From a virus, in the IMG/VR virus record IMGVR_UViG_3300045988_063822: 38,666 nt of DNA; one strand, given 5' to 3'. Position numbers and translations under genes: made by a program. Positions 1 to 38,666 of this stretch are shown here, piece by piece. Numbering within the stretch: the first letter of the stretch is position 1; every line of letters begins with the position of its first letter. The notes under the pieces are model-generated. The model was not told where the DNA came from. It was given only the letters and a program-made list of their open reading frames with translations, and searched no databases.

Positions 1-85
1 GGGTAAATTATGACGCCACAGAGGAAACCAAAATTGAGCTAATGTCTGGTATTTCTACCGTTGGATTGTATTATGGCAAAAAAAC
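1..85. repeat. Terminal overlap copy 1, identical to 38582-38666. This is a circular or complete-contig signature; the genome unit is 38581 bp.
   Basis: Read directly: both ends read gggtaaattatgacgccacagaggaaacc...ttatggcaaaaaaac. The repeat lies inside an ORF that stays in frame across the junction. Confidence 0.9.
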
Positions 86-701
86 AGAATCTTCGCAAAT
101 AGTAACTGCGGATGATATGTTGCGCATAACTGTTAATGCTTGGACTTGTGGCGTATATACATCCCTAAGAAAGATATTGATTGAATTTGCAACGAGTGGT
201 AGCACTAACGATTTTGTTAAAATAGAGTCAGCCACTATTGGTGACCAAGAAACATTTACTGTTGTAGGTACCTATAATGTTTCTGGGAATAGTGGATGGA
301 ACTCGATACCTTATTCGAATAATTTGGGGGCGTATTCACTAAACCAGACTTCTAATGTTGGAGTATTACGGTTTACTTTTTCAACCAGTACTGCTAGTAG
401 TTATCGAGGTAGACCGTATGTTCAAAATCTAATACTAAATGGGATTACTAATTATGTTAATCCAAGCAAGCTATCAGCTACGGGACATCTGTATTCATAC
501 GATTATCAACAAAATGCAATGTTCCCAGCTAATGTAACTGCTGAAAAATTTATTGGTGATGGGTCAAAATTAACCAATATTCCTTATCCACCAAAAGAGC
601 TTCCGAATGTCACCACCGCTGACAATGGAAAGTTCTTGCGTGTTGTGTCCGGCGCATGGGCCGCTGCGGAGATTGCAAACGCAAACGGAGGTAGCTTCTG
701 A
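1..701 (+). CDS. Tail fibre / receptor-binding protein, 3' part. The ORF starts at 38188 and continues across the circular junction; full length is about 364 aa.
   Basis: The frame of ORF 42..701 matches ATG 38188 once 38581 is subtracted. It is the last gene of the tail module. The C-terminal domain is AT-rich. Stop codon at 699-701. Confidence 0.7.
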   Translation, partial: VNYDATEETKIELMSGISTVGLYYGKKTESSQIVTADDMLRITVNAWTCGVYTSLRKILIEFATSGSTNDFVKIESATIGDQETFTVVGTYNVSGNSGWNSIPYSNNLGAYSLNQTSNVGVLRFTFSTSTASSYRGRPYVQNLILNGITNYVNPSKLSATGHLYSYDYQQNAMFPANVTAEKFIGDGSKLTNIPYPPKELPNVTTADNGKFLRVVSGAWAAAEIANANGGSF

Positions 702-2080
702 TGGCTGAATATCTAACAAACACAACCGACCTGACAAAGGTTGCCGCAGCTATCCGGGAGAAAGGCGGCACATCTGACCCACTGGTCTACCCGGACGGAT
801 TTGTGACGGCTATTGGGAACATTCAGACTGGAGGCACTACACCCGGCGCACCCGGAGACATTACATTCTACGACTATGATGGCACGATTGTCACGTCTTG
901 GACGTTGGAAGAACTGGCAACAAAGACAGCGCTGCCAGATTATCCATCGCATGAGGGGCTTATCTGTCAGGGCTGGAACTGGTCGCTTGCCGACCTCAAG
1001 ACCACAAATCGCAAGATGAATGTCGGCGCAATGTATATCACGGACGACGGCAAAACCAGAATCTACATCCGTCTGGAAGAAGGGCGCACATCCCCAATGC
1101 TTGGCGTTTGTCCGAATGGCACAGTCACGGTTGATTGGGGCGATGGAACCACGCCGGATACATTGACGGGTACAAGCACATCCACGGTAAAATGGACACC
1201 AAATCATGCTTATGCCGCAGCGGGCGAGTATGTGATCAAGTTGACAGTTGATGGGACGATGGGATTTTACGGTGGCTTTGTTTTCTCTGTGGGTGGCGCA
1301 ATTCTTCTGTATTCATCTAATGTTTCAGACAATCGTAATTATGTTTATAGAAACAGTGTTCAGAAAATTGAGATTGGAAGTGGTGTAACAAGTATTGGAG
1401 ACTATGCTTTCAGCCCTTGTTATTCTCTTGCATCAATCACAATTCCTGATAGTGTAACAAGTATTGGAAACCATACTTTCAATTACTGTTATTCTCTTGC
1501 ATCAATCACAATTCCTGATAGTGTAACAAGTATTGGAACCTATGCTTTCCGTTACAATTATTCTCTTGCATCAATCACAATTCCTAATGGTGTAACAAGT
1601 ATTGGAGAAGGTACATGCAATTACTGTTATTCTCTTGCATCAATCACAATTCCTGATAGTGTAACAAGTATTGGATTCGCCGCATTCGAGAGTTGTTATT
1701 CTCTTGCATCAATCACAATACCGAATAGCGTGACAAGTATTAGTGCGCAGACATTTTACAACTGTTATTCTCTTGCATCAATCACAATTCCTGATGGTGT
1801 AACAAGTATTGGAAACCATGCTTTCAATAGTTGTTATTCTCTTGCATCAATCACAATTCCTAATGGTGTAACAAGTATTGGAGACTATGTATTCAATTAC
1901 TGTTATAGTGTAGCTTTTTATGATTTCACAGATTACACATCTGTCCCGACACTAGCAAACACCAATGCGTTTACCAATATCTCAGTTGACTGTCAAATCC
2001 GCGTTCCAGCGTCGCTTGTCGATGAATGGAAAGCAGCTACAAACTGGTCGACATACGCGAGCCATATCGTGGGGGTGTAA
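701..2080 (+). CDS. Tail-associated leucine-rich-repeat protein: fibre-like N-terminus, a Listeria-Bacteroides-repeat-like segment, a PKD-like segment and 8 BspA-type LRR_5 repeats.
   Basis: ATGA overlap with the previous stop. Motifs seen: HEGLICQGWNW, DWGDGTTPD...HAYAAAGEYVIKLTV (PKD-like), and 8 copies of SIGxxxFxxCYSLASITIPxxVT. Confidence 0.8.
   Translation: MAEYLTNTTDLTKVAAAIREKGGTSDPLVYPDGFVTAIGNIQTGGTTPGAPGDITFYDYDGTIVTSWTLEELATKTALPDYPSHEGLICQGWNWSLADLKTTNRKMNVGAMYITDDGKTRIYIRLEEGRTSPMLGVCPNGTVTVDWGDGTTPDTLTGTSTSTVKWTPNHAYAAAGEYVIKLTVDGTMGFYGGFVFSVGGAILLYSSNVSDNRNYVYRNSVQKIEIGSGVTSIGDYAFSPCYSLASITIPDSVTSIGNHTFNYCYSLASITIPDSVTSIGTYAFRYNYSLASITIPNGVTSIGEGTCNYCYSLASITIPDSVTSIGFAAFESCYSLASITIPNSVTSISAQTFYNCYSLASITIPDGVTSIGNHAFNSCYSLASITIPNGVTSIGDYVFNYCYSVAFYDFTDYTSVPTLANTNAFTNISVDCQIRVPASLVDEWKAATNWSTYASHIVGV
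1382..1933. repeat. Tandem array of 8 x 69 bp (23-codon LRR units). The scaffold parts are near-identical and each unit has a variable core of about 20 nt.
   Basis: The strings tgttattctcttgcatcaatcacaattcct and gtgtaacaagtattgga recur with a 69-bp period. The segment between them differs in every unit. Confidence 0.9.
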
Positions 2081-3361: not shown

Positions 3362-3679
3362 ATGGACTACACAGAAATCATTTCGGCGGTGATTGCGCTG
3401 ATCTCGGCGCTGGTGTCGGCATTTTTGATCCCGTGGATCAAGGAGCGCGTCGGCGCGGACAAGCTCAAAAAGTGGCAGGCGTATGTGGAGATCGCGGTAA
3501 GGGCGGCGGAGCAGCTTTACAATGCCAACGAGGGCGCTGAGAAAAAGGCGTATGTGCTGCACTACCTCGCCGAGAGAGGCATCAAGTTTGATTCTGATAC
3601 CGTGGATAAAATGATCGAATCTGCGGTGCTGACGCTCCACCATGAGCTTTACGGAGGCGCAAATGGCACTGAAAATTAA
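3362..3679 (+). CDS. Phage holin, LL-H family-like.
   Basis: RBS aaaggag. N-terminal TM segment (IISAVIALISALVSAFLIPWI) followed by KLKKWQAYVEIAVRAAEQLY...KKAYVLHYLAERGI...IESAV, the typical LL-H holin layout. Confidence 0.65.
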   Translation: MDYTEIISAVIALISALVSAFLIPWIKERVGADKLKKWQAYVEIAVRAAEQLYNANEGAEKKAYVLHYLAERGIKFDSDTVDKMIESAVLTLHHELYGGANGTEN

Positions 3680-4343
3680 CGATACCATCCGGGCAACGAG
3701 AGTGGGCGGGCGGCGTCCGCTCTCGGCCATCCGTGCAATCGTGTTTCACTACACGGCGAACACCGGCCTGCACGCGACGGCGCTCGGGAACGCGCGGTAT
3801 TTCGCGAACGGCAGCGAGGGACGCGCTGCTTCGGCACATTTCGTGGTTGACGAAAGCGATACCGTTTATCAGTGTGTGCCGCTGGAGGTGGTTGCGTGGG
3901 CGGTTGGCGACGGCAGGAGCGGCAAATACGGCAAGGTGTACGGCAACTACAACACCGTCAGTATCGAGATGGTGAGCCACACAGATGCTTCCGGCAAGTA
4001 TTACATCCCGGAGGCGACGATGAAAAACGCGGCGCGTCTGTATCAAATGCTGTTGAAGCAGCTGCCGGGCGTGCAGGCCGCAATCCGACATTATGACATT
4101 TCGATGAAACTGTGTCCGCTGCCGCTGATTGACGAAAAGAAATGGGAGGACTTTAAGAAGCTCTTGGAGGAGGTGGACGAAGTGGTCACGAAAGCAAAGA
4201 TGATCATCAACGGCAAGGAGATCGAGGTCGAACGGATTTTGAAGGACGGCACGAATTACATCAAAATTCGGGACATCGCAAAGGCGCTCGAACTGGATGT
4301 GTCGAATAAGGGGAACATTCCCATTTTGAATCATAAGCAGTAG
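3663..4343 (+). CDS. Endolysin: N-acetylmuramoyl-L-alanine amidase (Amidase_2/PGRP type) with a C-terminal copper-amine-oxidase-N-like wall-binding domain.
   Basis: GGAGG lies 6 nt upstream of ATG 3663; there is an alternative ATG at 3642. Motifs IVFHYTAN, AHFVVDE, AWAVGD, SIEMV. C-terminal INGKEIEVERILKDGTNYIKIRDIAKALEL. Confidence 0.85.
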   Translation: MALKINDTIRATRVGGRRPLSAIRAIVFHYTANTGLHATALGNARYFANGSEGRAASAHFVVDESDTVYQCVPLEVVAWAVGDGRSGKYGKVYGNYNTVSIEMVSHTDASGKYYIPEATMKNAARLYQMLLKQLPGVQAAIRHYDISMKLCPLPLIDEKKWEDFKKLLEEVDEVVTKAKMIINGKEIEVERILKDGTNYIKIRDIAKALELDVSNKGNIPILNHKQ

Positions 4344-4668: not shown

Positions 4669-4704
4669 CCCCGGCAGGAGAAATCCTGTCGGGGGTGATT
4701 TTTA
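4669..4704. terminator. Bidirectional hairpin terminator between the convergent late operon and the toxN-like gene.
   Basis: Stem ccccggcagg (4669-4678) pairs with cctgtcgggg (4685-4694) with one G-U pair, followed by a T-run at 4699-4704. Confidence 0.6.
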
Positions 4705-5205
4705 TTGCTTTTGGCTTTTGCCTCGGGAAGGGTCATACGCTGCGCATGCTTGCTCCAATGCTTTGAAATCGCAGGATATTTTACAAAGAAAGGCGTTACC
4801 CTTATTCACAACGGAAAAGTATGTATGGGCAGCGCGATCCATAATATCTGCCTTATGTTTGTTGCATTGTGCAATCTGATTCAAAAGAAGTGCGCGGTAC
4901 TTGGGATCTGATTCTTCCGCGATATTATAGCGGACAATGGCCGCATCGTGGACAGGAATCATATTGTTAAATCCAAGAAGTCCAAGTTTACCACCACTAA
5001 GTTTCAGATAATGCTTCCCGGGTTTCATTTTTTCGTGATTCGGTTTCGGAGACTCCATCGGAACGAAATAACGGAATTCGCCCACCAGCAGAACTACACC
5101 AACGTACGGTCGACGCTGCCCTTTGTTGAATGGGACACGGTAATCGCGAGAGTGCATGAACCGGATATAGTGGTCTGAGATTCTGCAAATGAAAAGATTC
5201 TCCAT
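4702..5205 (-). CDS. toxN: ToxN/AbiQ-family endoribonuclease toxin (type III toxin-antitoxin / abortive infection).
   Basis: The 167-aa product reads FICRISDHYIRFM..RDYRVP....RRPYVGVVLLVGEFRYFVPMESPKPNH...LGLLGFNNMIPV. This aligns by eye with ToxN (FYTISSKYIEYLKEFDDKVP...AFIGIVLEIQGHKYLAPLTSPKKWH...LGLINLKFMIPI). It is preceded by a repeat array and a terminator. Confidence 0.8.
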   Translation of the reverse strand: MENLFICRISDHYIRFMHSRDYRVPFNKGQRRPYVGVVLLVGEFRYFVPMESPKPNHEKMKPGKHYLKLSGGKLGLLGFNNMIPVHDAAIVRYNIAEESDPKYRALLLNQIAQCNKHKADIMDRAAHTYFSVVNKGNAFLCKISCDFKALEQACAAYDPSRGKSQKQ

Positions 5206-5220
5206 ATTTCGACCTTTCCG

Positions 5221-5258
5221 GGAGAAAAAGGCGAGGCGGAGGACAATCTCCGCCTCGC
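5221..5258 (-). terminator. Rho-independent-type hairpin between the repeat array and the toxin gene.
   Basis: gcgaggcggag (5231-5241) and ctccgcctcgc (5248-5258) form an 11-bp stem. On the minus strand the stem is followed by CTTTTTC (5230-5224). Confidence 0.7.
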
Positions 5259-5274
5259 TTTTAGGTGCCCGTGT

Positions 5275-5396
5275 TTTTCAGTTTCCTACTTAACGGCAAG
5301 GAATTTCCGCTTTTTTCATTTCCTACTTAACGGCAAGGAGTTTCCGCTTTTTTGATTCCCTATTTTACGGCAAGGGGTTTCCGCTTTCACGAGCGG
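5275..5396 (-). ncRNA. ToxI-like antitoxin RNA precursor: 3 tandem 37-nt repeats plus partial flanking units.
   Basis: Minus strand reads GCGGAAACCCCTTGCCGTAAAATAGGGAATCAAAAAA / GCGGAAACTCCTTGCCGTTAAGTAGGAAATGAAAAAA / GCGGAAATTCCTTGCCGTTAAGTAGGAAACTGAAAAA. In plus coordinates the units span 5348-5384, 5311-5347 and about 5274-5310. Confidence 0.75.
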
Positions 5397-7377: not shown

Positions 7378-8553
7378 CTAATCGTGCTCTGAGGCATCAA
7401 CACTTGCCCCGTGTGTAACATTATGTGCAACATCATTTTTCCCTGTATTTGGTGCTCCGGGCATTTGATTCACGGCAGCGGCCATGCTGGACATATCCGG
7501 GTGGATATAGCGCTGCGTCGTGGTATACTTGCTGTGCCGCATGATCTCCTGAATCACGGACGGTGCGATATTTTGCAGTGCCAGCGCCGTGGCCGTCGTG
7601 TGGCGGCAGGAATACGGGACAAGCCGCCGCACCCCCGCTTGCTCAAGGGCCTCATAATAGCGCGTGTAAAATGTCTGCTCCATCATAGGACAAAAATTCC
7701 CGACGCGAGATTTATTCTCCTCGCAGAGCTGCCGGATGACCGGCGCGAGAAAGTCCGGAAATACCATGGGTGTCTCTTTGCGCTTTTTTGTTTTGATGCC
7801 GCTTTTGACGATCTCGTTGCGTTCAAAGTCGATGCAGGCTTTTTTGAGCCCGCGCAGCTCCCCGGGCATCATGCCTGTGTAGATCATGGTGAGGATATAG
7901 CCGACAAAGTGATTTGTGAGATACGCCTTCCATAGTTTTTTGATCTCGTCGTCTGTAAACGGCTCCGGCGGGGTCTCGATCAGCTCCGGGAGCGTGATGT
8001 ATTTTGAGAGGTTTACCGTCACAGCTTTCTCAGCCAGAGCCAGATTAAAGCAATGCGAGAGCAGCGTCTTCATGTCCTTCCGCGTATAGTATGTGCTGGC
8101 CTCGCGGTCAACGACTTCCTGGATCTGATGGATGACCAGGTTGTCCATCTCAATATCTGCCAAGGAGGACAGGCGCTCATAGGCTTTTCGCATGGCGGCC
8201 TGTTTGTCGCGGGACAGTTTTTTGTATTTGCCTGCCTTGTAAGTCACCCAGTATTCCCGCAGCGTGGGTGCGGCCGGCGTTGGCTTCGGTGGGTCTGACG
8301 CATAAGCGAGGGCGGCCCGTTTGGTCTTGAAGCCGCCCTTCGTCTTTACGGTCCGCCGCAGTTTCCCGTCCTCATCCAGATAGGAGCCTGTGCTCCACTT
8401 GGCTGTCCATGTGGCGCCGCGCTTGTAGGCGGTGCCCTGTCCATTGCCGCGAGACCGTATCCCGCCGCGCATGGCCGCGGTCTCCTGCTTCGCGCCACAC
8501 TGGGCGCAGAATGGGCCGTCCGGAACGTCTTGTTTGCATTTGCGGCAGATCAT
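7378..8553 (-). CDS. int: Tyrosine-type site-specific integrase with an N-terminal zinc-ribbon.
   Basis: C-terminal catalytic signature ...YSCRHTTATALAL...IMRHSKYTTTQRYIHP. N-terminal CRKCKQDVPDGPFCAQCG. Adjacent to the tRNA-derived attP. Confidence 0.9.
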   Translation of the reverse strand: MICRKCKQDVPDGPFCAQCGAKQETAAMRGGIRSRGNGQGTAYKRGATWTAKWSTGSYLDEDGKLRRTVKTKGGFKTKRAALAYASDPPKPTPAAPTLREYWVTYKAGKYKKLSRDKQAAMRKAYERLSSLADIEMDNLVIHQIQEVVDREASTYYTRKDMKTLLSHCFNLALAEKAVTVNLSKYITLPELIETPPEPFTDDEIKKLWKAYLTNHFVGYILTMIYTGMMPGELRGLKKACIDFERNEIVKSGIKTKKRKETPMVFPDFLAPVIRQLCEENKSRVGNFCPMMEQTFYTRYYEALEQAGVRRLVPYSCRHTTATALALQNIAPSVIQEIMRHSKYTTTQRYIHPDMSSMAAAVNQMPGAPNTGKNDVAHNVTHGASVDASEHD

Positions 8554-17051: not shown

Positions 17052-17248
17052 AGCCACCGTGTGAGAGGAACTGTCCGTCTCGGACAGTGGGATGTCACAC
17101 AAAGTGTGCGCCGTATCTGGAATATGAGGAAGCGAAACAGGCGGAATATCGGGCGAGAGAAGTCGAACGGAGCCGCGACGCCTACACTGCGGATGCGAAG
17201 AAGCGGTGTAAGAGCGTGGAGCGGCTGAGAAAGGCGGGGCTATTGTAA
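17048..17248 (+). CDS. Hypothetical small Cys-rich protein (GTG start).
   Basis: GGAGGAA lies upstream of GTG 17048. Sequence CERNCPSRTVGCHTKC. Confidence 0.45.
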   Translation: MKPPCERNCPSRTVGCHTKCAPYLEYEEAKQAEYRAREVERSRDAYTADAKKRCKSVERLRKAGLL

Positions 17249-18141
17249 TGGACTTGGAACAGAGCGCGTTTGAGGCGCTGCGATTTGCGTCGGCGCAGAG
17301 CTTGAAAATATACAAGCAACCGCTGGTAATTAAATACTCGGGCGGGAAGGATTCAGACGTGCTTTTGCATCTGGCTAGGAAATCTGGTATCCCGTATGAG
17401 GTGCTGCACTCACTGACTACGGCGGACGCACCGGAAACCGTATGGCACGTGCGGGATACCTTCCGCCGATTGGAGCTGGCGAACGTAAAGTGCACAATCG
17501 ATACGCACCGGACGCCGGACGGCGGAAACGCGACGATGTGGAATCTGATCCCGAGAAAGCTCATGCCGCCCACAAGGATCAAGAGGTACTGCTGCGAAGT
17601 CTTGAAGGAGAACGGAGGCCGAGGCCGTTTTATCGCGACCGGCGTAAGGTGGGACGAATCGTCGAGGCGGAAAAACAGCCGCGGTGTGATCGAGGTATCC
17701 CACAGAGACAAAAACAAGCGACTGATCCTGATGGATGACAACGACGAGGCCCGGATGCAGTTTGAAACGTGCCAGCTCAAGGGCCAGCGGACGGTGAATC
17801 CCATCATCGGATGGTCAACGGCTGACGTGTGGGATTACGTAACGGCGGAACATATCCCTATGAATCCGCTCTATGGCTGCGGCCACACGCGGGTTGGATG
17901 TATCGGATGCCCGTTAGCTTCGAAACGTACCAGAATAGAGGAATTTATAATCTGGCCGAAATACAAGCAAGCATATATCCGCGCGTTTGATCGGATGCTA
18001 AAGGAACGACACCGCCGCGGGAAGATGGACGGCGGGATGCGATGGGGCGATAATGGGGTGGACATATTTAACTGGTGGATGGAAAACGCTGTGCTTCCGG
18101 GGCAGGAAGTGCTAGAAGAATTTCGGGAGGATTTGATATGA
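17248..18141 (+). CDS. PAPS-reductase-family (PP-loop ATP pyrophosphatase, DndC/IbrA-like) protein.
   Basis: PP-loop motif YSGGKDSDVLLHLA and a C-terminal Cys cluster CGHTRVGCIGCPLA. Confidence 0.75.
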   Translation: MDLEQSAFEALRFASAQSLKIYKQPLVIKYSGGKDSDVLLHLARKSGIPYEVLHSLTTADAPETVWHVRDTFRRLELANVKCTIDTHRTPDGGNATMWNLIPRKLMPPTRIKRYCCEVLKENGGRGRFIATGVRWDESSRRKNSRGVIEVSHRDKNKRLILMDDNDEARMQFETCQLKGQRTVNPIIGWSTADVWDYVTAEHIPMNPLYGCGHTRVGCIGCPLASKRTRIEEFIIWPKYKQAYIRAFDRMLKERHRRGKMDGGMRWGDNGVDIFNWWMENAVLPGQEVLEEFREDLI

Positions 18142-23456: not shown

Positions 23457-25784
23457 ATGACCGAGGCGCGCGGGTGCGCGCGAGAATTGAATCATGCGGT
23501 GCGGGCGCAAACGACGCGCCTGCGCGAAACGCCGGAGGCTGTGCCAGGCAGCAGCGACATTGGGAACGCCGCCATTGCCTTCTCAGATCCTCCTAACTGG
23601 GCCCGGAGCCGCCGGGCCTGGCAGAGTCTCCGGCATGCGGGAGGTGAGCACTTGGCCAGAGAGGACATGATCCGGAAGGACATGGAGCTGGTCGGAACCT
23701 ACAACGAGATATTCGAGCCGACGATCAAGCAGCTGGCCAAGACGGAACGCGAACTCTCCCGCGCAGAGAAAGAGTGGAAGAAACAGGGGGGGCAGCGGAT
23801 CTGCACCATGATCAACAAGACCGGCGCGGAGTACACGGCCAAAAGCCCATACTGGACGGCGGTCGAAGATCTGCGCGCGACGGTGCAGTCACTCCGCAAT
23901 CAGCTCGGCCTGACGCCGACTGGCCTGAATAAAGCCAGATCGAAGCTTCAGCCCTCTGCCCTCGGCAACAGCAAGATCGAGCAAATGCTTGCCGCAGCGC
24001 ACGACCACGCTGTTGAGCACGGCCCGCAGTATCAGCGCGAGGTGGACTCCTTCGTGGAATCCGTCCTGTCCGGAGAGTCCGGGTTGTGCGAGGATGCTGT
24101 GCTCGCCTGCAAGCGATACGTTGCAGACCTCGACCGTGGAAAATGGGAGTTCCGCACGGAACCGGCCAACGACATCATCGCCATCATCGAGACAATGCTC
24201 TGCCACCAGCAGGGAGAATTTTTGGACGCAACGCCGCTGCGCGGCACGCCGTTCCTGCTTCTCCCTTATCACAAGTTCATCGTCTACAACCTTCTCGGCT
24301 TTTATGCCCCAGGGACGAACATCCGGCGCTTCAAGGAGGCCGTCGACTTCATCCCCCGAAAAAACATCAAGACGACCTTTGCTGCAGCGCTCGCGTTTGC
24401 GCTGGCGCTGCATGAACGAGCCAGCGGTTCCAAGGTTTATGCCGTAGGCGGTGCGCTTAGGCAAACGAAAGAGGTTTTCAATTTTCTTAAATACAACCTG
24501 GCTCGTTTGCAAATTACGACGGATGACGATCCTGTGCAGGGGCTTCGCGTCATCGACAACAATGCCGAGCGGTCGATCTCCGGCGATATCGGCAGCGGCA
24601 TGGTCTCCATCGATGCGCTGGCCGCGAATCCTGACAAGCAGGACTCCTTTAACTGCAACATCGTCATCGCGGACGAAGCGCACACCTACAAAAGCCCGCA
24701 ACAGTATCAGATCCTGAAGGACGCGACGAAGGCGTACACAAACAAGCTCGTCATCGTGATCTCGTCTAACGGTCCGAACGCCAGAGGCTTCCTGCTCGCC
24801 CATCTCGAATACTGCCGGAAAATTCTGCGCGGGACGGTCACGGGTGACGCGGCCGACAGCATCTTTTGTTTTCTCTGCTCCGCGCCGACACTGGAAAACG
24901 GTGACGTTGACCTGCATGATCCGGCTGTGCTGAAAGCAGCCTCGCCGGGCTGGGGCTACTCCATCCGCCCGCAGGACATGATCAACGATGCAGCCATGGC
25001 CGCTGAAAACCCGGCGCTCCGGCCGGAGTTTCTCAACAAGTCGCTGAACGTCACAACGAACGCGATCAAGGCATGGTTTGACATTCAAGAGTTCCGCAAG
25101 AGCGACGAACGATACAGTTGGAACTATCGGCAACTCGCGAAGCTGCCTATCCGTTGGTATGGCGGCACAGACCTTTCGAAGCTGCACGACCTGACGGCCG
25201 GTTGCCTCTTCGGCCACTACAAAGGCGTAGACATCATCATTCCGCATGCATGGTTCCCGCGGCCGGCCGCCATCGTCAAGGCGCAGCAGGATCAAATCCC
25301 GCTATTCGGCTGGCAGGAGGACGGCTGGCTGGACATGACCAACGACAAGGTCACAAATCACCACGATGTGGTGCAATGGTACAAAAACCTGCGCGCCGAT
25401 GGGTTTAAGATCCGCCGCATCGGACACGACCGAAAATTCTGCCGCGAATACTTCGTCGAGATGCAGAAGGAACGCTTCCCCATCAAGGATCAGCCGCAGC
25501 TGTTCACACGGAAATCCGAAGGTTTCCGCTACCTGGAGGCCAGCGCCAAGAAAGGAACGCTCTACTACATGCACGCCGAGCCCTATGAGTATTGCGTGCA
25601 GAATGTCGCCGGAATTGAGAAGGCTGACGACATGGTCATGTATCAAAAAATCGAGCCAAACCTCCGCATCGACCTTTTTGATGCCTCGGTGTTCGCGGTT
25701 TGCGCTTATCTCGAAGATCTGACCGCCAGCAATAAGGCGGCAGGCTGGTATGACAAGAAAGACAAGGACGGTGATGCAGATTGA
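23457..25784 (+). CDS. Terminase. A P27-family small-subunit-like region (about aa 1-176) is fused in frame to a Terminase_1-type large subunit (aa 177-775). The internal ATG at 23985 could also initiate TerL alone.
   Basis: TerS-like stretch: ...KSPYWTAVEDLRATVQSLRNQLGLTPTGLNKARSK. TerL-like stretch: ACKRYVADLDRGKWEFR...GTPFLLLPYHKFIVYNLLGFY...NIVIADEAHTYK. No stop codon separates them. Confidence 0.8.
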   Translation: MTEARGCARELNHAVRAQTTRLRETPEAVPGSSDIGNAAIAFSDPPNWARSRRAWQSLRHAGGEHLAREDMIRKDMELVGTYNEIFEPTIKQLAKTERELSRAEKEWKKQGGQRICTMINKTGAEYTAKSPYWTAVEDLRATVQSLRNQLGLTPTGLNKARSKLQPSALGNSKIEQMLAAAHDHAVEHGPQYQREVDSFVESVLSGESGLCEDAVLACKRYVADLDRGKWEFRTEPANDIIAIIETMLCHQQGEFLDATPLRGTPFLLLPYHKFIVYNLLGFYAPGTNIRRFKEAVDFIPRKNIKTTFAAALAFALALHERASGSKVYAVGGALRQTKEVFNFLKYNLARLQITTDDDPVQGLRVIDNNAERSISGDIGSGMVSIDALAANPDKQDSFNCNIVIADEAHTYKSPQQYQILKDATKAYTNKLVIVISSNGPNARGFLLAHLEYCRKILRGTVTGDAADSIFCFLCSAPTLENGDVDLHDPAVLKAASPGWGYSIRPQDMINDAAMAAENPALRPEFLNKSLNVTTNAIKAWFDIQEFRKSDERYSWNYRQLAKLPIRWYGGTDLSKLHDLTAGCLFGHYKGVDIIIPHAWFPRPAAIVKAQQDQIPLFGWQEDGWLDMTNDKVTNHHDVVQWYKNLRADGFKIRRIGHDRKFCREYFVEMQKERFPIKDQPQLFTRKSEGFRYLEASAKKGTLYYMHAEPYEYCVQNVAGIEKADDMVMYQKIEPNLRIDLFDASVFAVCAYLEDLTASNKAAGWYDKKDKDGDAD

Positions 25785-27536: not shown

Positions 27537-29225
27537 ATGGCATTAAAAGTTTTGCTGCTGCGGAGCCGTCTTGCACCGCTGCAGACTGAGCTCCAGACGC
27601 TCGAAACCACGCGCGACGGCTTCGCGGCCCGCGAAGCGGAGCTGGAGCATGACATCGCTGAGGCGCAGACCGATGAGGAGCGCAGCGTCGTTGAGGCCGC
27701 TGTGAATGCTTTTGAGCAGGAGCGCAGCGCGAACGCCGCGGACATCACCCGTGTGCAGGAACGGATCAACGAGATCAACGAAGAAATCCGCAGTCTGGAA
27801 GAAGCGCAGACGCCGCCAGCATCTGATCCCCCGGCGGCAGAGCCGACCGGAACCACCAACACCGAAAGGAGTAATCATTCCATGCCTATCAACAACCCGG
27901 AGCGCCGCTGGTTCGGCCTCACCTATCAGGAGCGCGACGCGCTGCTGGCGCAGCCCGCCGTCAAAGAATTCCTGCAGCGCGTCCGCGAGGCGCGCAGTCA
28001 GCAGCGCAGCGTAAACGGCGGCGAACTCGGCATCCCTGATGGTTTCCTGCCGATCCTGCGCGATCTGACCTATCAGGAATCCAAGTTCCTGCGCTACTGC
28101 TTCACCACGAGTTTCCGCGGCACCACGCGCCAGAACGTTGCCGGTGTTGCACCGGAGGCCATCTGGACCGAAATGACCGACGCGCTCAACGAGCTCGACA
28201 TTGACTTCTGGCAGCTGACGATGGACGGCTACATGGTCGGCGGCTATATGGCTGTCCCGAACTCCCTGCTGATGGATGACAGTGACCTGCAGCTTGCATC
28301 GACCATCCTTCAGGCACTCGCATCCTCGCTCGCAAAAGCGATCGATAAGTCCATCTGGTTCGGCACCGGCGAAAAGATGCCCGTTGGCATCCTGACCCGT
28401 CTGTCCGCAACCGCGAAGCCCGCATGGTGGGGCGCGCAGCAGGGCGATTTTACCGACCTGCATACCAGCCACATTCTGAAACTCGACCTCTCCGCCAAGA
28501 CTGGCGTCGAGTTCTTCCAGCCGCTGGTCGCGGCGCTGGCTGTGGCCAAGCCGGACTACTCCAACGGTACGGTCGTCTGGACCATGAATCGCAAGACACA
28601 TCTCGACCTGATGTCCCGCGCGTTGGCCTACAACTCCGCTGCGGCTATGGTTGCAGGCGTCAACAACACCATGCCGGTCGTCGGCGGTGTGATCGTCGAG
28701 TGGGAAGTCATGCCGGACAATGAGATTGCAGGCGGTTTCCTGAGTCTCTATCGCTCGGTCGAGCGCGAGGGCACGCTGATCGAATCCAATACAAATGTGC
28801 GGTGGCTTCAGAATCAGACCTGCTATAAGGGCCTGCAGCGCCGCGACGGCAAGCCGGCCATCGGTGAGGCGTTTGTGGTCGTCAACTACGGCAATGTGGC
28901 CCCGACCACGACCACGACTTTCGGCAAGGACCTCGCTAACACTGCAATTGGCACTTTGATCGTGACGACGGCAGCCGGCAGCGGCGCGTCCGGCGACAGC
29001 ACCGTGACGGTGGCCGGCAACAGCTCCGGCGCGCTGAAATACCAGGTCAGCGGTCAGGCCGTGCCTGTGGCGAACGGCGAGCCCATCGGCAAGGGCTGGA
29101 CAGATCTGCCCGCAAATAAAACCATCAAGAGCGCCACGACCGGCGCGACCATCACCGTCGTCGAGGTCAACGCGGACGGCAAGGCCGTGGCCGTTGGCTC
29201 CGGCAGCGTGACCGCCAAGGCATAA
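27537..29225 (+). CDS. Major capsid protein, HK97 fold, with an N-terminal coiled-coil delta/scaffold domain and a C-terminal Ig-like extension of about 100 aa.
   Basis: It follows the protease with a 0-nt gap. The first 110 aa or so are coiled coil. C-terminal TVTVAGNSSGALKYQVSG...TITVVEVNADGKAVAVGSGSVTAKA. Confidence 0.8.
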   Translation: MALKVLLLRSRLAPLQTELQTLETTRDGFAAREAELEHDIAEAQTDEERSVVEAAVNAFEQERSANAADITRVQERINEINEEIRSLEEAQTPPASDPPAAEPTGTTNTERSNHSMPINNPERRWFGLTYQERDALLAQPAVKEFLQRVREARSQQRSVNGGELGIPDGFLPILRDLTYQESKFLRYCFTTSFRGTTRQNVAGVAPEAIWTEMTDALNELDIDFWQLTMDGYMVGGYMAVPNSLLMDDSDLQLASTILQALASSLAKAIDKSIWFGTGEKMPVGILTRLSATAKPAWWGAQQGDFTDLHTSHILKLDLSAKTGVEFFQPLVAALAVAKPDYSNGTVVWTMNRKTHLDLMSRALAYNSAAAMVAGVNNTMPVVGGVIVEWEVMPDNEIAGGFLSLYRSVEREGTLIESNTNVRWLQNQTCYKGLQRRDGKPAIGEAFVVVNYGNVAPTTTTTFGKDLANTAIGTLIVTTAAGSGASGDSTVTVAGNSSGALKYQVSGQAVPVANGEPIGKGWTDLPANKTIKSATTGATITVVEVNADGKAVAVGSGSVTAKA

Positions 29226-31620: not shown

Positions 31621-31838
31621 ACTTCGCTTGGTATCTGAATATCTGGATCAATGTCCTGCATAACGACGAGGCCGTTTTCTGGCGGACAATGACGCCGGCG
31701 CGGTGCGTAGCGCTTTACCGTGAGTTTTTCAAGCTCATGGGCGCACCGGGCCGGCGTGTCGTTTCTGAGTCTCCTGCGGAGACGGAGAAGCCCGCCCGCT
31801 TGTCGTTGTCGGCATATCTGATGGGAGGTGGCGGTTGA
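31243..31838 (+). CDS. Tail assembly chaperone G-T fusion product, made by a -1 frameshift at 31581-31587.
   Basis: The -1 frame reads KKRGDQGSGSDGLNFAWYLNIWINVLHNDEAVFWRTMTPARCVALYREFF... with no stop until 31836. Confidence 0.55.
31581..31587 (+). promoter_or_regulatory. Slippery heptamer A_AAA_AAC for a programmed -1 frameshift.
   Basis: The heptamer is in X_XXY_YYZ register with the gpG frame (aca aaa aac). The -1 frame is open from here to TGA 31836-31838. Confidence 0.6.
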
Positions 31839-33775
31839 TGGCTGCCCCGAGTATCAACTCAAAAATCAAACTGGACGGCGAGCGGGAATACAAGGCTGCA
31901 CTGGCCGAGATCAAGAGCGGCCTGAACGTTCTGAAATCCGAGCTGAATCTCGCGTCCGAGCAGTTTCGGGATAACGCGGACAGCGTCGAAGCGCTGACCA
32001 AGAAAAATGACATCCTCGACCGCACGATCCTGACGCAGAAGGAAAAAATCGAGCAGATCGAAAAGGCGCTCCAGTCCTCGGCCTCCGCCTACGGCGAAGC
32101 CGACGAGCGCACCAATCGCTGGAAAACGCAGCTCAACAACGCACAGGCCGAATTGGTCAAGATGGAGCGTGCATTGAAGGACAACGAGGACGCACTCCAA
32201 AAGGCGCAGAAAGAGGCCGACGGCACGACAACCGCCTTTGGCAAGCTGAAAAAGGCGCTGTCTGACACCAAGGAGCAGGGCGGCGGCATCAAGGGTCTGT
32301 TTTCTAATCTCAAGGAGGAGTTCTCCGGCAACAACGAGGTCATGCGCGGCCTTGGAGACGCGCTGACGGATGTGGCCGGGAAGTTCGGCGTCCAGCTCCC
32401 GGAGGGCGCACAGAAGGCCGTGCAGTCTCTCAACGGCATCAATGCAGGCGCAGCTTTGGCTGTGACCGGCCTTGGCCTTGTGGTCGCTGCGGTGATCAAG
32501 ACCGAAAAGGCTCTGATCTCCATGACGAAGGAGTCCGCAGCCTACGTCGACAACATCCTCACGATGTCGCAGACAACCGGGCAATCCGCAGAACAGCTGC
32601 AGGAGTTTTCCTACGCAACGGAGCTTCTGGACGTGTCCATGGACACGCTGCAAGGCTCGCTGACCAAGCTGACCAACAATATGCAAAATGCCATCAACGG
32701 AACCGGGGATGCGAAGTCTGCCTTTGAGCAGCTGGGCATTTCTCTGACAAATGCCGACGGCAGTATGCGCAGCGCAAACGATGTCTTTTATGACACGATC
32801 GATGCGCTCGGTGAGGTGCAGAACGCGACGGAACGTGACGCGCTCTCCATGGACATCTTTGGGCGGTCTGCGCAGGATCTCAACCCGCTGATCATCCAGG
32901 GCAGCGACACCCTGAAAGATTATGCAAAGGAAGCGCATGACGTTGGCTATGTTCTCGACAACGAAGCGTTAGAAGCACTCGGCGCTGTCGACGACGGATT
33001 CCAGCGGCTGCAAAAAACACAGGAATCTGTCAAGAACCAGATGGCTGCGGAGTTCGCCCCGTATCTGACCAAGGCGCTGGAGGACATCCGAGAGCTGATC
33101 CAGAAGGTCGGTAAAGCGCTGGTCGAGTCCGGCGCGGTCGATGCTTTTGGCAGTATCCTCGAATCGTCCGTTGCGCTTCTGGAGCCGCTCGGCTCGCTGA
33201 TCTCTGCGGTGCTCCCGGCCCTGACCGCGGCCCTGAAGCCGATCGCGCAGACAGTCGCTCTGATCGCAGATACGGCCAACGTTATCGTCGGTCTGTTTAC
33301 GTTCAACGGCGATAAGATCAGAACCGCACTCGGCCTGAACGCCAGCTCCGGACAGCTCAGCAATATGCAGCGTGCCAGCGGCGCCTATAACGGCTACCGC
33401 TATTCGCAGTCTGCGGGCTGGATCACCGAGGGCACCTACACGGACGCGGAGCTGCGTTCGATGTACAACAGTGAGGTTTCCGCTGGGACGGCGCAAGGGA
33501 CCTTTGAGGCGTGGAAAAATGCCGGGTTGTGGCGCAGGAACGCCAGCGGCACAGACTGGTTTCCCGGCGGACGGACGCTGCTTAGCGAGCACGGCGCAGA
33601 GACCGCGATCCTGCCGCAGGGCACGCGCATCCTGACCGCGCAGGAAACGCGCCAGACCGGCGGCGATACTTACAACATCACGATCGACGCCCACACGGTG
33701 CGGGAGTTTGAGGACATCCTCCGCATTGTGCAGGAGCGCCGCAGAGTTGTTCGAATGGGAGGTGCAACGGGATGA
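31838..33775 (+). CDS. Tail tape measure protein (TP901-family core).
   Basis: RBS gggaggtgg. Coiled-coil N-terminus. Core region FSYATELLDVSMDTLQGSLTKLTNNMQNAINGTGDAKSAFEQLGISL...RDALSMDIFGRSAQDLNPLI. Confidence 0.85.
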   Translation: MAAPSINSKIKLDGEREYKAALAEIKSGLNVLKSELNLASEQFRDNADSVEALTKKNDILDRTILTQKEKIEQIEKALQSSASAYGEADERTNRWKTQLNNAQAELVKMERALKDNEDALQKAQKEADGTTTAFGKLKKALSDTKEQGGGIKGLFSNLKEEFSGNNEVMRGLGDALTDVAGKFGVQLPEGAQKAVQSLNGINAGAALAVTGLGLVVAAVIKTEKALISMTKESAAYVDNILTMSQTTGQSAEQLQEFSYATELLDVSMDTLQGSLTKLTNNMQNAINGTGDAKSAFEQLGISLTNADGSMRSANDVFYDTIDALGEVQNATERDALSMDIFGRSAQDLNPLIIQGSDTLKDYAKEAHDVGYVLDNEALEALGAVDDGFQRLQKTQESVKNQMAAEFAPYLTKALEDIRELIQKVGKALVESGAVDAFGSILESSVALLEPLGSLISAVLPALTAALKPIAQTVALIADTANVIVGLFTFNGDKIRTALGLNASSGQLSNMQRASGAYNGYRYSQSAGWITEGTYTDAELRSMYNSEVSAGTAQGTFEAWKNAGLWRRNASGTDWFPGGRTLLSEHGAETAILPQGTRILTAQETRQTGGDTYNITIDAHTVREFEDILRIVQERRRVVRMGGATG

Positions 33776-35751
33776 GTACAACGCTAACGCTCCAAGCGGT
33801 GCAGTCTGCGGCAACACTGTATTCTCAACCAACGACTACCTTTAACACAGAGACAGAATATTCATCTGATGCGCTTAATAACAGAGCATTTTACAAAATG
33901 TATGTCTCATTTCAGCCAATTCCTGCCGCATATCAATTTCAGAAGGTTGAAACAATCATATCGTATCTGTACTATCGCTCGCTGTATTCTCCCGCTCACA
34001 CCGAGACCGTCGGAAGCGTTGATCCGATAAGCAAACCATTCGATGCTAGCACATTAAATTACCAGAATGCACCCGGGCGTATAGGCGGCAGTAGTTATTC
34101 CTTGTATTTGTATAAAACCGGATATGATTCAAAATCATGGGTTGATGCATTTAATAGTTTTTCTAAAATTTTGAGATGTGGTTTGATGACCGATGTCTCA
34201 TCATGGTATGCAGTGCAATCATCGAGAAGCGCGAACCCTCCTTACTTGGAGGTCAGTATTGGCGATGAAATTATTGGACTAACAATATCTAATGCTGCAC
34301 CATCGAACGGGTCAATTGTTGCTGCAAACAGCAATGTATTTTCATGGAAAGAAGCCGCAAGCGGAACCTGCTATGCGGAGATTTCTCGCACGTCTGCAAA
34401 ATTCCGCTGGCGCAAATCTGCGTCCGACACAGTCAAGGAGATTGCCGTGCCCGGCACGGCTACCTCCATCACCATCCCAGCGAATACTTTTTCCGGTGAC
34501 AGCATCCAGTGGCAGCTCAGCGTGACCGCGAACAGCGGCGTCACCACGACCTCCGATTGGATGACGCTCTCGCTGACCGACGTGGAATCCACAGCCGTTG
34601 TGGTTGCTCCTGACCGGGCAGTCCTCGACGGATCGTCCGACAACGTATTCAAATGGGAACATGTCATTTCGACCGGCACGGCCCAAACGAAGGCCGAATT
34701 GCAGCAGAGCACGGACGGCAGCACATGGACGGCGCTGGCAACCGTCACCGGTGCTGCCAACACATGGACGGCTCCTGCCGGGACGTTTACCTCCGGCACA
34801 AAATACTGGCGCGTGCGGACGTACAATTCCAAGGGTGCTGCGGGCGCATGGAGCGCTGCCACACAGTTTATTGTGCTGGCCGCCCCTGCAACACCGCCCG
34901 TGTCCATCGTGTCCACAGAGCCGCGCCCGGAGATCCGCTGGCAGTCGGATGAACAGCAAGCCTACCAAGTCGAGATTGACGGCGTCTATGCCTCCGGTAC
35001 GCGCTTCGGAACCGGGAAGACGTGGAAAGCCCCATTTTATCTGGCCGATGGCAGCTACACGGTGCGCGTCCGTGTGCAAAACGAATACGGCTTCTGGTCG
35101 CCGTGGGGCACGGCGGCGCTCCCGGTCACAAACGTACCGGGCGGCGCGATCACGCTGACCGCCGAGGGCGGCATTGAGGCGGCGCTCAGCTGGACGCCGG
35201 GCAGCTTTGACTACTATCTGGTCTACCGGGACGGCGTGGCCATCGTGAAGGTCACGGAACCGAGCTACACCGACGCAGCCAGCATTGGTGGTGTGCGCTA
35301 TCAGGTGCGCGGCTGCTACGACAACAGCGACAATTACAGTCTGTCCGAGGCCGTGGAGGTCACGGTCAGCACAGACAAAGTCCGACTCTACGACATGGAG
35401 CGCGGCGAGTGGCTGCACTTCCTTTACGATTCCTCGGCGCACCGCAGCACGGGGCTGAGCCTGTCCCAGGACATCCAATATGTCCAGCTCTCCGGGCACA
35501 CCTACCCGGTCGCCGAGCGGAGCGAATTTAAGTCCCGCGCGCTGCGGATCACCTGCGTCTGCGCGGACTACGCGGAGCGGCAGTCTCTGCGGGCGCTGCT
35601 CGGACACCTGACCTGCTGCAAGACGCCGGAGGGCAATATGACCATCGGCTACCCGGCCAGCATCACGGAAAACTCTGACGATTTCTTCAGCACTTACAGC
35701 TTTACCATCGAACAGATTGACCGAAAGGAGGAGATCGACCTTGATTCGTGA
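33772..35751 (+). CDS. Distal tail (Dit-like) protein carrying an AT-rich N-terminal domain and several FN3-like repeats.
   Basis: ATGA overlap with the tape-measure stop. Repeated FN3-type patterns occur (F.W........Y.......G...W). The C-terminal ~120 aa have the look of a siphovirus tail component. Confidence 0.6.
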   Translation: MSTTLTLQAVQSAATLYSQPTTTFNTETEYSSDALNNRAFYKMYVSFQPIPAAYQFQKVETIISYLYYRSLYSPAHTETVGSVDPISKPFDASTLNYQNAPGRIGGSSYSLYLYKTGYDSKSWVDAFNSFSKILRCGLMTDVSSWYAVQSSRSANPPYLEVSIGDEIIGLTISNAAPSNGSIVAANSNVFSWKEAASGTCYAEISRTSAKFRWRKSASDTVKEIAVPGTATSITIPANTFSGDSIQWQLSVTANSGVTTTSDWMTLSLTDVESTAVVVAPDRAVLDGSSDNVFKWEHVISTGTAQTKAELQQSTDGSTWTALATVTGAANTWTAPAGTFTSGTKYWRVRTYNSKGAAGAWSAATQFIVLAAPATPPVSIVSTEPRPEIRWQSDEQQAYQVEIDGVYASGTRFGTGKTWKAPFYLADGSYTVRVRVQNEYGFWSPWGTAALPVTNVPGGAITLTAEGGIEAALSWTPGSFDYYLVYRDGVAIVKVTEPSYTDAASIGGVRYQVRGCYDNSDNYSLSEAVEVTVSTDKVRLYDMERGEWLHFLYDSSAHRSTGLSLSQDIQYVQLSGHTYPVAERSEFKSRALRITCVCADYAERQSLRALLGHLTCCKTPEGNMTIGYPASITENSDDFFSTYSFTIEQIDRKEEIDLDS

Positions 35752-38187: not shown

Positions 38188-38666
38188 ATGGGCGTCAGTA
38201 AAGTCGATTTCGCGGGGAATACGCTGGTCGACCTGACGGGAGACAGCGTTACACCGGAAACCCTGTTGGAAGGTGCAACGGCGCACAATGCCGCCGGGGA
38301 TCAGATTGCTGGAGCCGTGGCCGTGGCTCCAGCCTCCGCCACCACCCCGAAGGCCCCGGGGACGGCGTCGGCTGGTTCGGAAAGTGCGTATGCCCGAGGG
38401 GATCATGTGCATCCTGAGCAAACTGTTCACGACAATGATGTCTTGTGGGGTGGCAAAAATCTTCATGGCGAAGTATCTCCAACGGATGCGGCAATGGTAT
38501 CAGTCATCGGAGGTAATAAATTTGCGTTATGCAAACCACAAGGAATTACCATTGAATATACAAATGATGGTGGAGCAACATGGGTAAATTATGACGCCAC
38601 AGAGGAAACCAAAATTGAGCTAATGTCTGGTATTTCTACCGTTGGATTGTATTATGGCAAAAAAAC
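38188..38666 (+). CDS. Tail fibre / receptor-binding protein, 5' part. It runs off the window end and continues at 1-701.
   Basis: ATG 38188 lies 2 nt after the upstream stop. Reads MGVSKVDFAGNTLVDLTGDSVTPETLLEGATAHNAAGDQIAG...GSESAYARGDHVHP, a motif common in phage tail fibres. Confidence 0.7.
   Translation, partial: MGVSKVDFAGNTLVDLTGDSVTPETLLEGATAHNAAGDQIAGAVAVAPASATTPKAPGTASAGSESAYARGDHVHPEQTVHDNDVLWGGKNLHGEVSPTDAAMVSVIGGNKFALCKPQGITIEYTNDGGATWVNYDATEETKIELMSGISTVGLYYGKK
38582..38666. repeat. Terminal overlap copy 2, identical to 1-85.
   Basis: Same 85-nt string as the window start. Confidence 0.9.

Follow-up and report, generated by a model that had tools for sequence, protein, structure and literature searches.

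The stretch analysed here, called the window throughout, is the whole 38,666-nt IMG/VR record IMGVR_UViG_3300045988_063822, and it is a temperate phage. Its tail module carries a gene for a leucine-rich repeat (LRR) protein of 459 residues, much of which consists of eight nearly identical 69-bp units. Our best explanation, which we consider reasonably probable, is that this LRR gene encodes a distal tail adhesin, and so a candidate receptor-binding protein, of a siphovirus-like temperate phage of gut Clostridia. The scaffold of the units is almost invariant, the variation is concentrated in four codons of each unit, and comparison with related contigs (designated by L numbers below, the window itself being W) indicates that units are copied, gained and lost within arrays and that arrays move between phages.

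Anatomy of the repeat array

Tandem Repeats Finder detected a 69-nt period with 7.6 copies at positions 1383–1906, and parsing in frame with the open reading frame (ORF) at 701–2080 resolves the array into eight 23-codon (69-bp) units at 1379–1930. Units 1–7 share the scaffold [D/N][S/G]VTSIG..AF..CYSLASITIP, while unit 8 is only the 5′ half of a repeat, the C-terminal cap (YSVAFYDFT) taking the place of its 3′ half. Conservation reaches the DNA itself: codons 15–23 (YSLASITIP) are identical in units 1–7, synonymous sites included, with the exception of ATA CCG in unit 5, and the mean nucleotide identity between units is 94% in the scaffold as against 57% in codons 7–14. Exact tracts common to two units reach 58 nt, with 11 tracts of at least 30 nt, and a 44-nt scaffold pattern occurs six times in the window, always within the LRR array, and not once in 100 shuffles. 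An initial annotation made from the letters of the window had described eight near-identical 69-bp units with almost invariant scaffold DNA, which agrees with this parsing. It had also described a block of 6–7 codons differing in every unit; its eight core strings are correct, but the variation is not spread uniformly over the block. The hypervariable codons are 8, 9, 12 and 13, slight variation is found at 1, 2, 7 and 10, and A/T10, F11 and C14 are conserved residues within the core block.

The junction of units 5 and 6 stands out. In all alleles with the array type of the window it retains codons peculiar to it, as do the adjoining, GC-richer cores of these two units, and this retention shows that the segment escaped homogenisation. 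The junction and its flanking cores look like a patch of different origin.

Concerted evolution and turnover of units

Eight alleles share the window's array type, the exact scaffold 30-mer being found in one IMG/VR contig and four metagenome contigs only. In a set of 20 non-redundant genes, the same amino acid was encoded by the identical codon in a fraction of 0.88 within genes versus 0.52 between genes. The scaffold signature in the window reads TCT CTT GCA TCA ATC ACA ATT CCT, that of L031 TCT CTA GCA TCA ATT ACA ATA CCT and that of L039 AGC TTG GCA TCA ATC ACC ATT CCG. Such gene-specific synonymous signatures are the mark of concerted evolution, which, as an alternative to recent duplication, had been suggested for this array at the outset.

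Single events of unit turnover are also visible. The genes of L012 and L013 are identical but for one clean 138-nt (two-unit) indel, and the arrays of L006, L008 and L030 contain perfectly identical adjacent units. In L082, unit 2 is a copy of its own unit 4 (69/69 nt), the window having another unit at this place; in L083, unit 2 is an exact 69-nt copy of its unit 7, and an A18S change is present in three units. L118 has a mosaic array, with two units of foreign codon signature ahead of six that belong to the array type of the window. Together with unit counts that range from 2 to 15, these cases document the in-frame gain, loss and shuffling that the identical tracts had been predicted to permit, and supply the repeat-number and cassette variation for which a comparison of relatives had been proposed. 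The order of the cores TYAFRY, EGT..,.AAFE. and.QTF.. is conserved in W, L002, L082, L083, L117 and L119, and with the distinct codons at the unit 5/6 junction this shows that the array of the window is not a brand-new amplification.

Exchange of the array between phages

Between W and L002, the N-terminal 170 codons differ with a proportion of synonymous differences per site (pS) of 0.30 and of non-synonymous differences (pN) of 0.02, and the C-terminal cap, where the first difference is at codon 414, with a pS of 0.54. The 184 LRR codons hold 0 synonymous and 11 non-synonymous differences. In the LRR N-terminal cap (codons 171–226) there are likewise 0 synonymous differences to L002 and L083, versus 50 in codons 1–170. 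In the comparison with L117 and L119, pS is 0.33–0.45 for the flanks and the cap but 0.03 for orthologous units, where pN is 0.07–0.08; over the close alleles, pS is 0.27–0.45 in the N-terminal part and 0.3–0.55 in the C-terminal cap. Homogenisation within an array cannot reduce the divergence between lineages, so the low pS of the array reflects recent shared ancestry of the array.

Base composition was also compared. In the composition profile, GC content drops from ~52–53% to ~35% near position 1250 and stays at ~35% through the array, and the GC content at third codon positions is ~0.5 in the N-terminal parts versus 0.05–0.74 in the arrays of different relatives. Taken together, the sequence comparisons indicate that the AT-rich array is swapped by recombination between diverged phage backbones. 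Diverged flanks around a near-identical array make the gene a good marker for recent gene flow between gut phages.

The homologue family

One protein search gave at least 7997 homologues with E ≤ 1e-10 among the 8000 best-scoring matches listed. The lengths of the best 120 homologues cluster in 23-residue steps (~412, 436, 459, 482, 505, 528, 551 and 574 aa) and their unit counts run from 6 to 15; among viral contigs, counts as low as 2 (L026) and 3 (L001) occur. The overall identity of homologues lies between 47% and 96%, while the first 190 residues have a median amino acid identity of 94% among 96 homologues with differing LRR blocks. The family thus has the layout of tail fibres, with a conserved N-terminal part and an exchangeable distal part, and residues 1–170 are presumed to be the attachment module. 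In six relatives (L023, L025, L028, L029, L034 and L035, at ~3895–4100 in each), the first ~45 residues (MAEYLTNTTDLTKV...) are replaced by MSVQTEIDRI...AKGGT...TGG with the remainder kept, and the attachment end is therefore modular too.

Over 775 units of the family, the entropy at positions 8, 9, 12 and 13 is 3.5, 2.8, 3.3 and 3.2 bits, compared with ~2 bits at positions 15 and 18 and 0.4–0.6 bits at 19 and 21. Serine, asparagine, tyrosine, aspartate and glycine make up 72% of the residues at the hypervariable positions, on which ground we argue that these are solvent-exposed; the composition resembles that of binding sites. In scaffold homogeneity the window protein ranks 11th of 106 (0.92, median 0.85), and since the same four positions vary family-wide, its design is the family norm. 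The unusual design implied by the initial annotation is accordingly not unusual within the protein's own phage family.

One homologue is titled 'MAG TPA: leucine-rich repeat protein [Caudoviricetes sp.]', and in many uncultured phages ORFs of the BspA LRR type already carry an annotation, by name only. In the literature that we searched, no paper described LRR_5 proteins in phage tails, their function or their repeat dynamics; a paper on FNIP LRRs (PMC9525666) gives general LRR nomenclature only.

Fold and position of the variable residues

The protein matches Pfam LRR_5 (PF13306) with 218.1 bits (E = 3.5e-65; cut-off 27.7 bits) and has sequence matches to the solved LRR_5 proteins 4gt6 (2.4e-63), 4fs7, 4h09, 6mlx and 4cp6. 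Its units carry the 23-residue LRR_5 consensus LxxIxIPxxVxxIGxxAFxxC as L17, I20, I22, P23, V3, I6, G7, A10, F11 and C14. An AlphaFold2 (AF2) model was built from 30 same-length homologues and has a predicted local distance difference test score of ~90 in the LRR part, where DSSP assigns to each unit one three-residue strand (positions 19–21) and one two-residue bridge (positions 5–6). Foldseek matched the model to 4fdw, 4gt6 and 4fs7 at E ~1e-9, with a root-mean-square deviation of 2.7 Å over 225 columns for 4fs7, and among predicted viral structures (BFVD) to numerous ORFs from uncultured tailed phages that are called just 'leucine-rich repeat protein', such as A0A8S5SDY8 (Siphoviridae sp., E = 3e-10). 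By sequence, repeat consensus and fold, the LRR protein is a member of the LRR_5 (BspA/TpLRR-type) family.

As is the case for tail fibre genes, the LRR gene lies in the tail module, 3′ of the tape-measure-like and tail protein genes. The early suggestion of a BspA-type LRR protein among tail genes is supported by both the LRR_5 match and this neighbourhood, from which we predict that the protein is present in the virion. A crude hydropathy test found no signal-peptide-like stretch in the first 50 residues (highest 12-residue Kyte–Doolittle score 1.12), and the Pfam scan of the LRR protein found no anchor domain; the export and surface-anchor signals of bacterial BspA-like adhesins are thus lacking by these two measures. 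Directly before the LRR cap there is a PKD-like motif, TVDWGDGT...NHAYAAAGEYVIKLTV (TVDWGDGT...EYVIKLTV), at 1121–1264 (residues 141–188). Its match to Pfam PKD_4 is weak (E = 0.003, below cut-off), and AF2 confidence is low in this region.

Positions 8–13 lie about half a 23-residue turn away from the strand at 19–21 and flank the core-facing A10–F11. As judged by DSSP, the geometry of the repeat and the residue composition, the variable ladders should therefore run along the convex side or a lateral one, off the concave sheet. A structural model had been proposed as a check of whether the variable positions line the concave or ascending face, and for the concave face this was not borne out, since the concave strand in the AF2 model is formed by positions 19–21. 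The exposed residues of that strand, S19 and T21, are nearly invariant family-wide (0.4–0.6 bits). This near-invariant Ser19/Thr21 face (e.g., 1433–1441) is the opposite of what is seen in most ligand-binding LRRs, and it may act in contacts between domains or within an oligomer, or as a conserved binding site.

Tests for selection on the variable codons

Minimum state changes were counted in seven sets of orthologous units from eight alleles, giving 58 non-synonymous and 9 synonymous changes. The four hypervariable codons, out of 23, received 28 of the 58 non-synonymous changes (expected 10; p = 6e-8), and in these codons per-site non-synonymous change is 4–5 times the synonymous (Fisher p = 7e-4 versus variable plus semi-variable codons, p = 8e-7 versus all codons). 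In close pairs, dN/dS of the LRR part is infinite, ~3, 2.7 and 2.4, and that of the N-terminal part is 0.05–0.1. Because the conversion of a unit carries several non-synonymous differences at once and so inflates these counts, diversifying selection is plausible only, and the evidence for it at positions 8, 9, 12 and 13 is suggestive only.

Proposed working of the adhesin

In the explanation that we favour, the conserved N-terminal part would attach the LRR protein to the tail, and the binding surface would be that of a BspA/TpLRR-type solenoid with eight turns of 23 residues. In each turn V3, I6, A10, F11, C14, L17, I20 and I22 would form the core and positions 19–21 the conserved concave sheet. 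Positions 8, 9, 12 and 13 would be exposed and variable, positions 1, 2, 7, 15 and 18 less so, and ~32 residues rich in tyrosine, serine, asparagine and aspartate would form four ladders opposite the concave sheet. Diversity would arise by homologous recombination on the identical scaffold DNA, without a dedicated mutator. Unequal exchange would gain or lose whole units, and gene conversion from unit to unit would homogenise the scaffolds and copy or reshuffle the cores. Recombination between co-infecting phages or prophages would exchange whole or partial arrays across diverged backbones, and point substitutions would survive mainly at the exposed x positions of the consensus. Recombination of the array would probably retune what the phage sticks to. 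Virion location, ligand binding, the face occupied by the variable residues and adaptive value are the steps of this explanation that we infer.

A further reading, which we advance tentatively and regard as unlikely, is that gut phages maintain on an LRR scaffold a natural library of combinatorial binders. Identical scaffold tracts would recombine frequently, both inside an array and between phages residing together, and would keep reassorting ~32 non-concave positions rich in tyrosine, serine and asparagine and changing the number of units without a diversity-generating retroelement (DGR). If so, one phage population would hold many adhesin variants and could shift quickly in host or ligand specificity. 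The family is very large in gut metagenomes, its genes sit where host-range determinants normally sit, and its phages appear to be those of hard-to-culture Clostridia. If the protein is a receptor-binding protein, the four variable positions per repeat and the number of units would amount to a compact, readable code of host specificity, and the scaffold would offer a tractable natural starting point for altering the tropism of phages or for engineered LRR binders. The protein would also be a clear case of recombination, not retro-mutagenesis, as the engine of diversity.

Alternative explanations

Several points weigh against the tail adhesin. The LRR protein falls only into PHROGs families of 'unknown function', and a tblastn search of GenBank phages gave only uncultured, unannotated matches and found no cultured relative. 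The N-terminal half of the AF2 model has low confidence. Positions 8, 9, 12 and 13 were assigned to their face by DSSP, the canonical LRR layout and residue composition, and the true binding site could instead be the conserved Ser/Thr face on the concave side. Within the hypervariable codons, 3 of 31 changes are synonymous, which is not significant (p = 0.25). Repeat counts come from short-read assemblies and could err where adjacent units are identical.

The protein and its recombination could be as described with no adaptive diversification at all, the arrays being young, the x positions unconstrained and drifting, and the scaffold held by purifying selection and recency. The non-significant test would fit such a history, as would the recent duplication seen in the identical adjacent units of L006, L008 and L030, and conversion can mimic a surplus of non-synonymous change. 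We nevertheless judge it unlikely, if to be taken seriously, since core order is kept across W, L002, L082, L083, L117 and L119 while the scaffolds stay identical, the per-site non-synonymous excess at the variable codons and the high dN/dS of the LRR part relative to the N-terminal part point the other way, and the composition of the hypervariable positions is typical of binding sites and not of neutral drift. For the diversifying selection proposed in the initial annotation, a dN/dS above 1 in most close pairs is suggestive, but the test on the variable codons did not confirm it and conversion confounds it. It is rather improbable, in our view, that the gene is an accessory gene, its product, for instance, decorating the virion and adhering to mucus or to glycans from the diet, or else serving in lysogenic conversion or as a decoy inside the host cell or at its surface, after the manner of cellular BspA-like adhesins. 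The junction of tail and lysis genes is a frequent site of accessory genes in phages, among solved structures the nearest relatives are cell-surface proteins of bacteria (4gt6 of Faecalibacterium, Bacteroides proteins and PcpA), the LRR block is identified as an import by its richness in AT, and the PHROGs families of the protein are of unknown function. Against it stand the missing signal peptide and anchor, the overlap of the LRR start codon with the stop codon of the upstream tail gene, the same gene position in dozens of related phages, and a highly conserved N-terminal module joined to a swappable distal domain, which is the standard layout of tail fibres.

A dedicated generator acting on the cores, be it a DGR, a shufflon-type invertase or copy-choice from silent cassettes like that of the variable lymphocyte receptors (VLRs), is barely credible. 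The variation does fall in few codons, whose consensus is often AAC, AAT or TAC, and in this it has a superficial likeness to a DGR template. However, it is not adenine-specific, with codon 8 being GAC, AAC, ACC, GAA, TTC or GCG and all bases varying in the variable codons, and no reverse transcriptase or invertase was found among the ORFs scanned with Pfam (coding-looking ORFs of at least 300 aa plus ten smaller ones). In the conversions observed, the donor was in each case another unit within the array itself. Across the whole circular genome the scaffold pattern occurs only within the array at up to 3 mismatches, leaving no silent donor cassette there. With no reverse transcriptase or invertase among the scanned ORFs and no template repeat, adenine bias or second scaffold copy, DGR, invertase and silent cassettes are largely refuted. 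Very improbable, too, is an assembly artefact, in which short reads would have yielded a chimeric or miscounted array. Identical tracts of up to 58 nt in contigs from metagenome assemblies would invite such an error, but four independent assemblies agree on all eight units and their order, differing only at single points or at the level of units, the reading frame is intact and the AF2 model is confident. Every unit has its own core, so unique sequences are spaced more closely than the length of a read.

Genome context and other features

The first 85 nt of the window (1–85) are identical to the last 85 nt (38,582–38,666). This terminal identity shows a circularly closed genome of ~38.58 kb, and the genes at the two ends are one gene, the tail gene directly upstream of the LRR gene. 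Genes follow the order terminase, portal, capsid, tape-measure-like, PHROG tail protein, upstream tail gene, LRR gene, holin and amidase, and between the LRR gene and the holin there are two small genes and one for an XhlA-like protein. The positions of the main features are given in Table 1.

Table 1. Features of the LRR gene, its repeat units and the surrounding genes in the window.
Feature	Position	Strand	Remarks
LRR gene	701..2080	+	459 aa; Pfam LRR_5; start ATG and TGA stop of the upstream tail gene overlap by one base (TGATG 699–703)
N-terminal part	701..1210	+	aa 1–170; conserved, ~53% GC; predicted N-terminal helices and beta-rich region
LRR N-terminal cap	1211..1378	+	aa 171–226, non-repetitive; moves along with the array in some exchanges
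Unit array	1379..1930	+	eight 69-bp LRR units; consensus [DN][SG]VTSIGxxAFxxCYSLASITIP
Unit 1 core DYAFSP	1400..1417	+	codons 8–13; differs at codons 12–13 from L002, L082 and L083
Unit 2 core NHTFNY	1469..1486	+	L082 has a copy of unit 4 instead; L083 a copy of unit 7
Unit 3 core TYAFRY	1538..1555	+	codon 14 is N, not C; positional orthologue in L002, L082, L083, L117 and L119
Unit 4 core EGTCNY	1607..1624	+	C replaces the conserved F11
Unit 5 core FAAFES	1676..1693	+	GC-richer than other cores
Unit 5/6 junction ATA CCG / AAT AGC GTG	1718..1732	+	own synonymous codons, present in all alleles of the window's array type
Unit 6 core AQTFYN	1745..1762	+	repeat parsing, allele comparison
Unit 7 core NHAFNS	1814..1831	+	repeat parsing, allele comparison
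Unit 8 core DYVFNY	1883..1900	+	3′ half of the unit opens the C-terminal cap
C-terminal cap domain	1931..2077	+	aa 411–459, conserved; GC higher again; median 80% identity among homologues
Upstream tail gene, 5′ part	38188..38666	+	364 aa in total, crosses the circular junction to 701; GC-rich N-terminus
Upstream tail gene, 3′ part	1..701	+	AT-rich distal domain, ~37% GC
Lysis cassette	3362..4343	+	holin 3362–3679 (PF09682, E = 1.6e-14); N-acetylmuramoyl-L-alanine amidase 3642–4343 (PF01510, E = 1.7e-21)
Integrase	7381–8553	-	Pfam scan
Tape-measure-like protein	31835–33772		genome scan
Tail protein	35717–36781		PHROG match

The upstream tail gene has a composition break of its own, with ~63% GC at the N-terminus switching near 38,420 to the AT-rich distal domain, for which L002, a close relative, has a sequence that is unrelated. 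Its product had no Pfam match above cut-off and no PHROG match, and from these patterns it may be a second exchangeable host-recognition module. A host scan of the genome gave distant matches or matches to metagenome-assembled genomes only, from Oscillospiraceae and Eubacteriales, with isolates of Pseudoflavonifractor at 43–45%; these matches suggest a host at the level of gut Clostridia.

Elsewhere in the genome, Pfam identified DnaB, ToxN and PAPS reductase genes. The ToxN gene (4702–5205, minus strand; PF13958, E = 9.6e-45) has ahead of it, on the same strand, 3.1 copies of a 37-nt unit in tandem (5274–5387), and together (4702–5387) these have the layout of a type III toxin–antitoxin (ToxIN-like) abortive-infection module, here on a temperate phage. 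The 37-nt repeats had no Rfam match, nor did any Rfam family reach its gathering score anywhere in the window. The PAPS-reductase-domain protein (17248–18138, E = 1.1e-23) is encoded in the replication/early region, as in phage DNA-modification modules. The C-terminal part of the major capsid protein ORF (27537–29222) matches the C-terminal domain of the S-layer protein SbsC just below cut-off (E = 2.7e-5), and may be a capsid decoration domain. In the large-terminase ORF (23457–25781; 775 aa as listed), residues 74–157 also match Terminase_4, a small-subunit family, which would suggest either fused subunits or a listed start too far upstream.

Comparison with known systems

The closest structural relatives of the window protein are the BspA-like/TpLRR proteins (4GT6 of Faecalibacterium prausnitzii, 4FS7 of Bacteroides ovatus, 6MLX of Treponema pallidum and 4CP6, pneumococcal PcpA), which have the same consensus and the same fold. 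Cellular BspA-like proteins have export signals and repeats that diverge along the whole unit, a difference that had been noted initially for ordinary BspA-type LRRs and that the alignments of 4GT6 and 4FS7 bear out. The window protein, by contrast, has no signal peptide, is encoded in a phage tail module, has scaffolds that are identical in DNA and belongs to a family with a conserved non-LRR N-terminal module. Structural neighbours also include the annotated 'leucine-rich repeat protein' or 'BspA family' ORFs of uncultured Caudoviricetes, crAss-like phages among them, which are database names only.

The VLR-like design that had been suggested for the protein stands with regard to the invariant framework and the localised variable positions; it does not stand with regard to the concave face, where S19 and T21 are near invariant, or to silent cassettes. 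Lamprey VLRs share with the window gene the LRR solenoid, the invariant framework with localised variable positions and a homology-guided copying of LRR cassettes, but their variation lies on the concave beta-sheet and is produced by somatic copy-choice from silent flanking cassettes. The targets of DGRs, such as Mtd of Bordetella phage BPP-1 and those of gut phages, likewise have few exposed variable codons in a stable scaffold, which is a C-type lectin and not an LRR fold; their reverse transcriptase has no counterpart among the scanned ORFs, and their template repeat and adenine bias have none here. The window gene therefore shows neither the two hallmarks of VLRs (concave variation and silent cassettes) nor those of DGRs (a reverse transcriptase with its template, and adenine restriction).

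DARPins and repebodies have an identical consensus scaffold in each repeat and a few randomised surface positions rich in tyrosine, serine, asparagine and aspartate. These are man-made libraries, whereas the pattern in the window comes from natural concerted evolution. The alpha C/Rib family of Gram-positive surface proteins shows concerted evolution and in-frame copy-number change between identical repeats; its repeats are identical throughout, unlike the units of the window, each of which keeps an individual core. In the T-even adhesin gp38, conserved glycine-rich motifs bound hypervariable segments and act as recombination sites for their shuffling. Like the window protein, for which a binding role is predicted, gp38 is a phage receptor-binding module in which short conserved motifs frame variable segments, although its fold is unrelated, its loops are at one tip and not in solenoid ladders, and it has no tandem copy-number change. 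By analogy, we suggest that the window protein works most like recombining modular phage receptor-binding proteins such as gp38 and like concerted tandem-repeat surface proteins, with a layout resembling that of consensus-designed binders.

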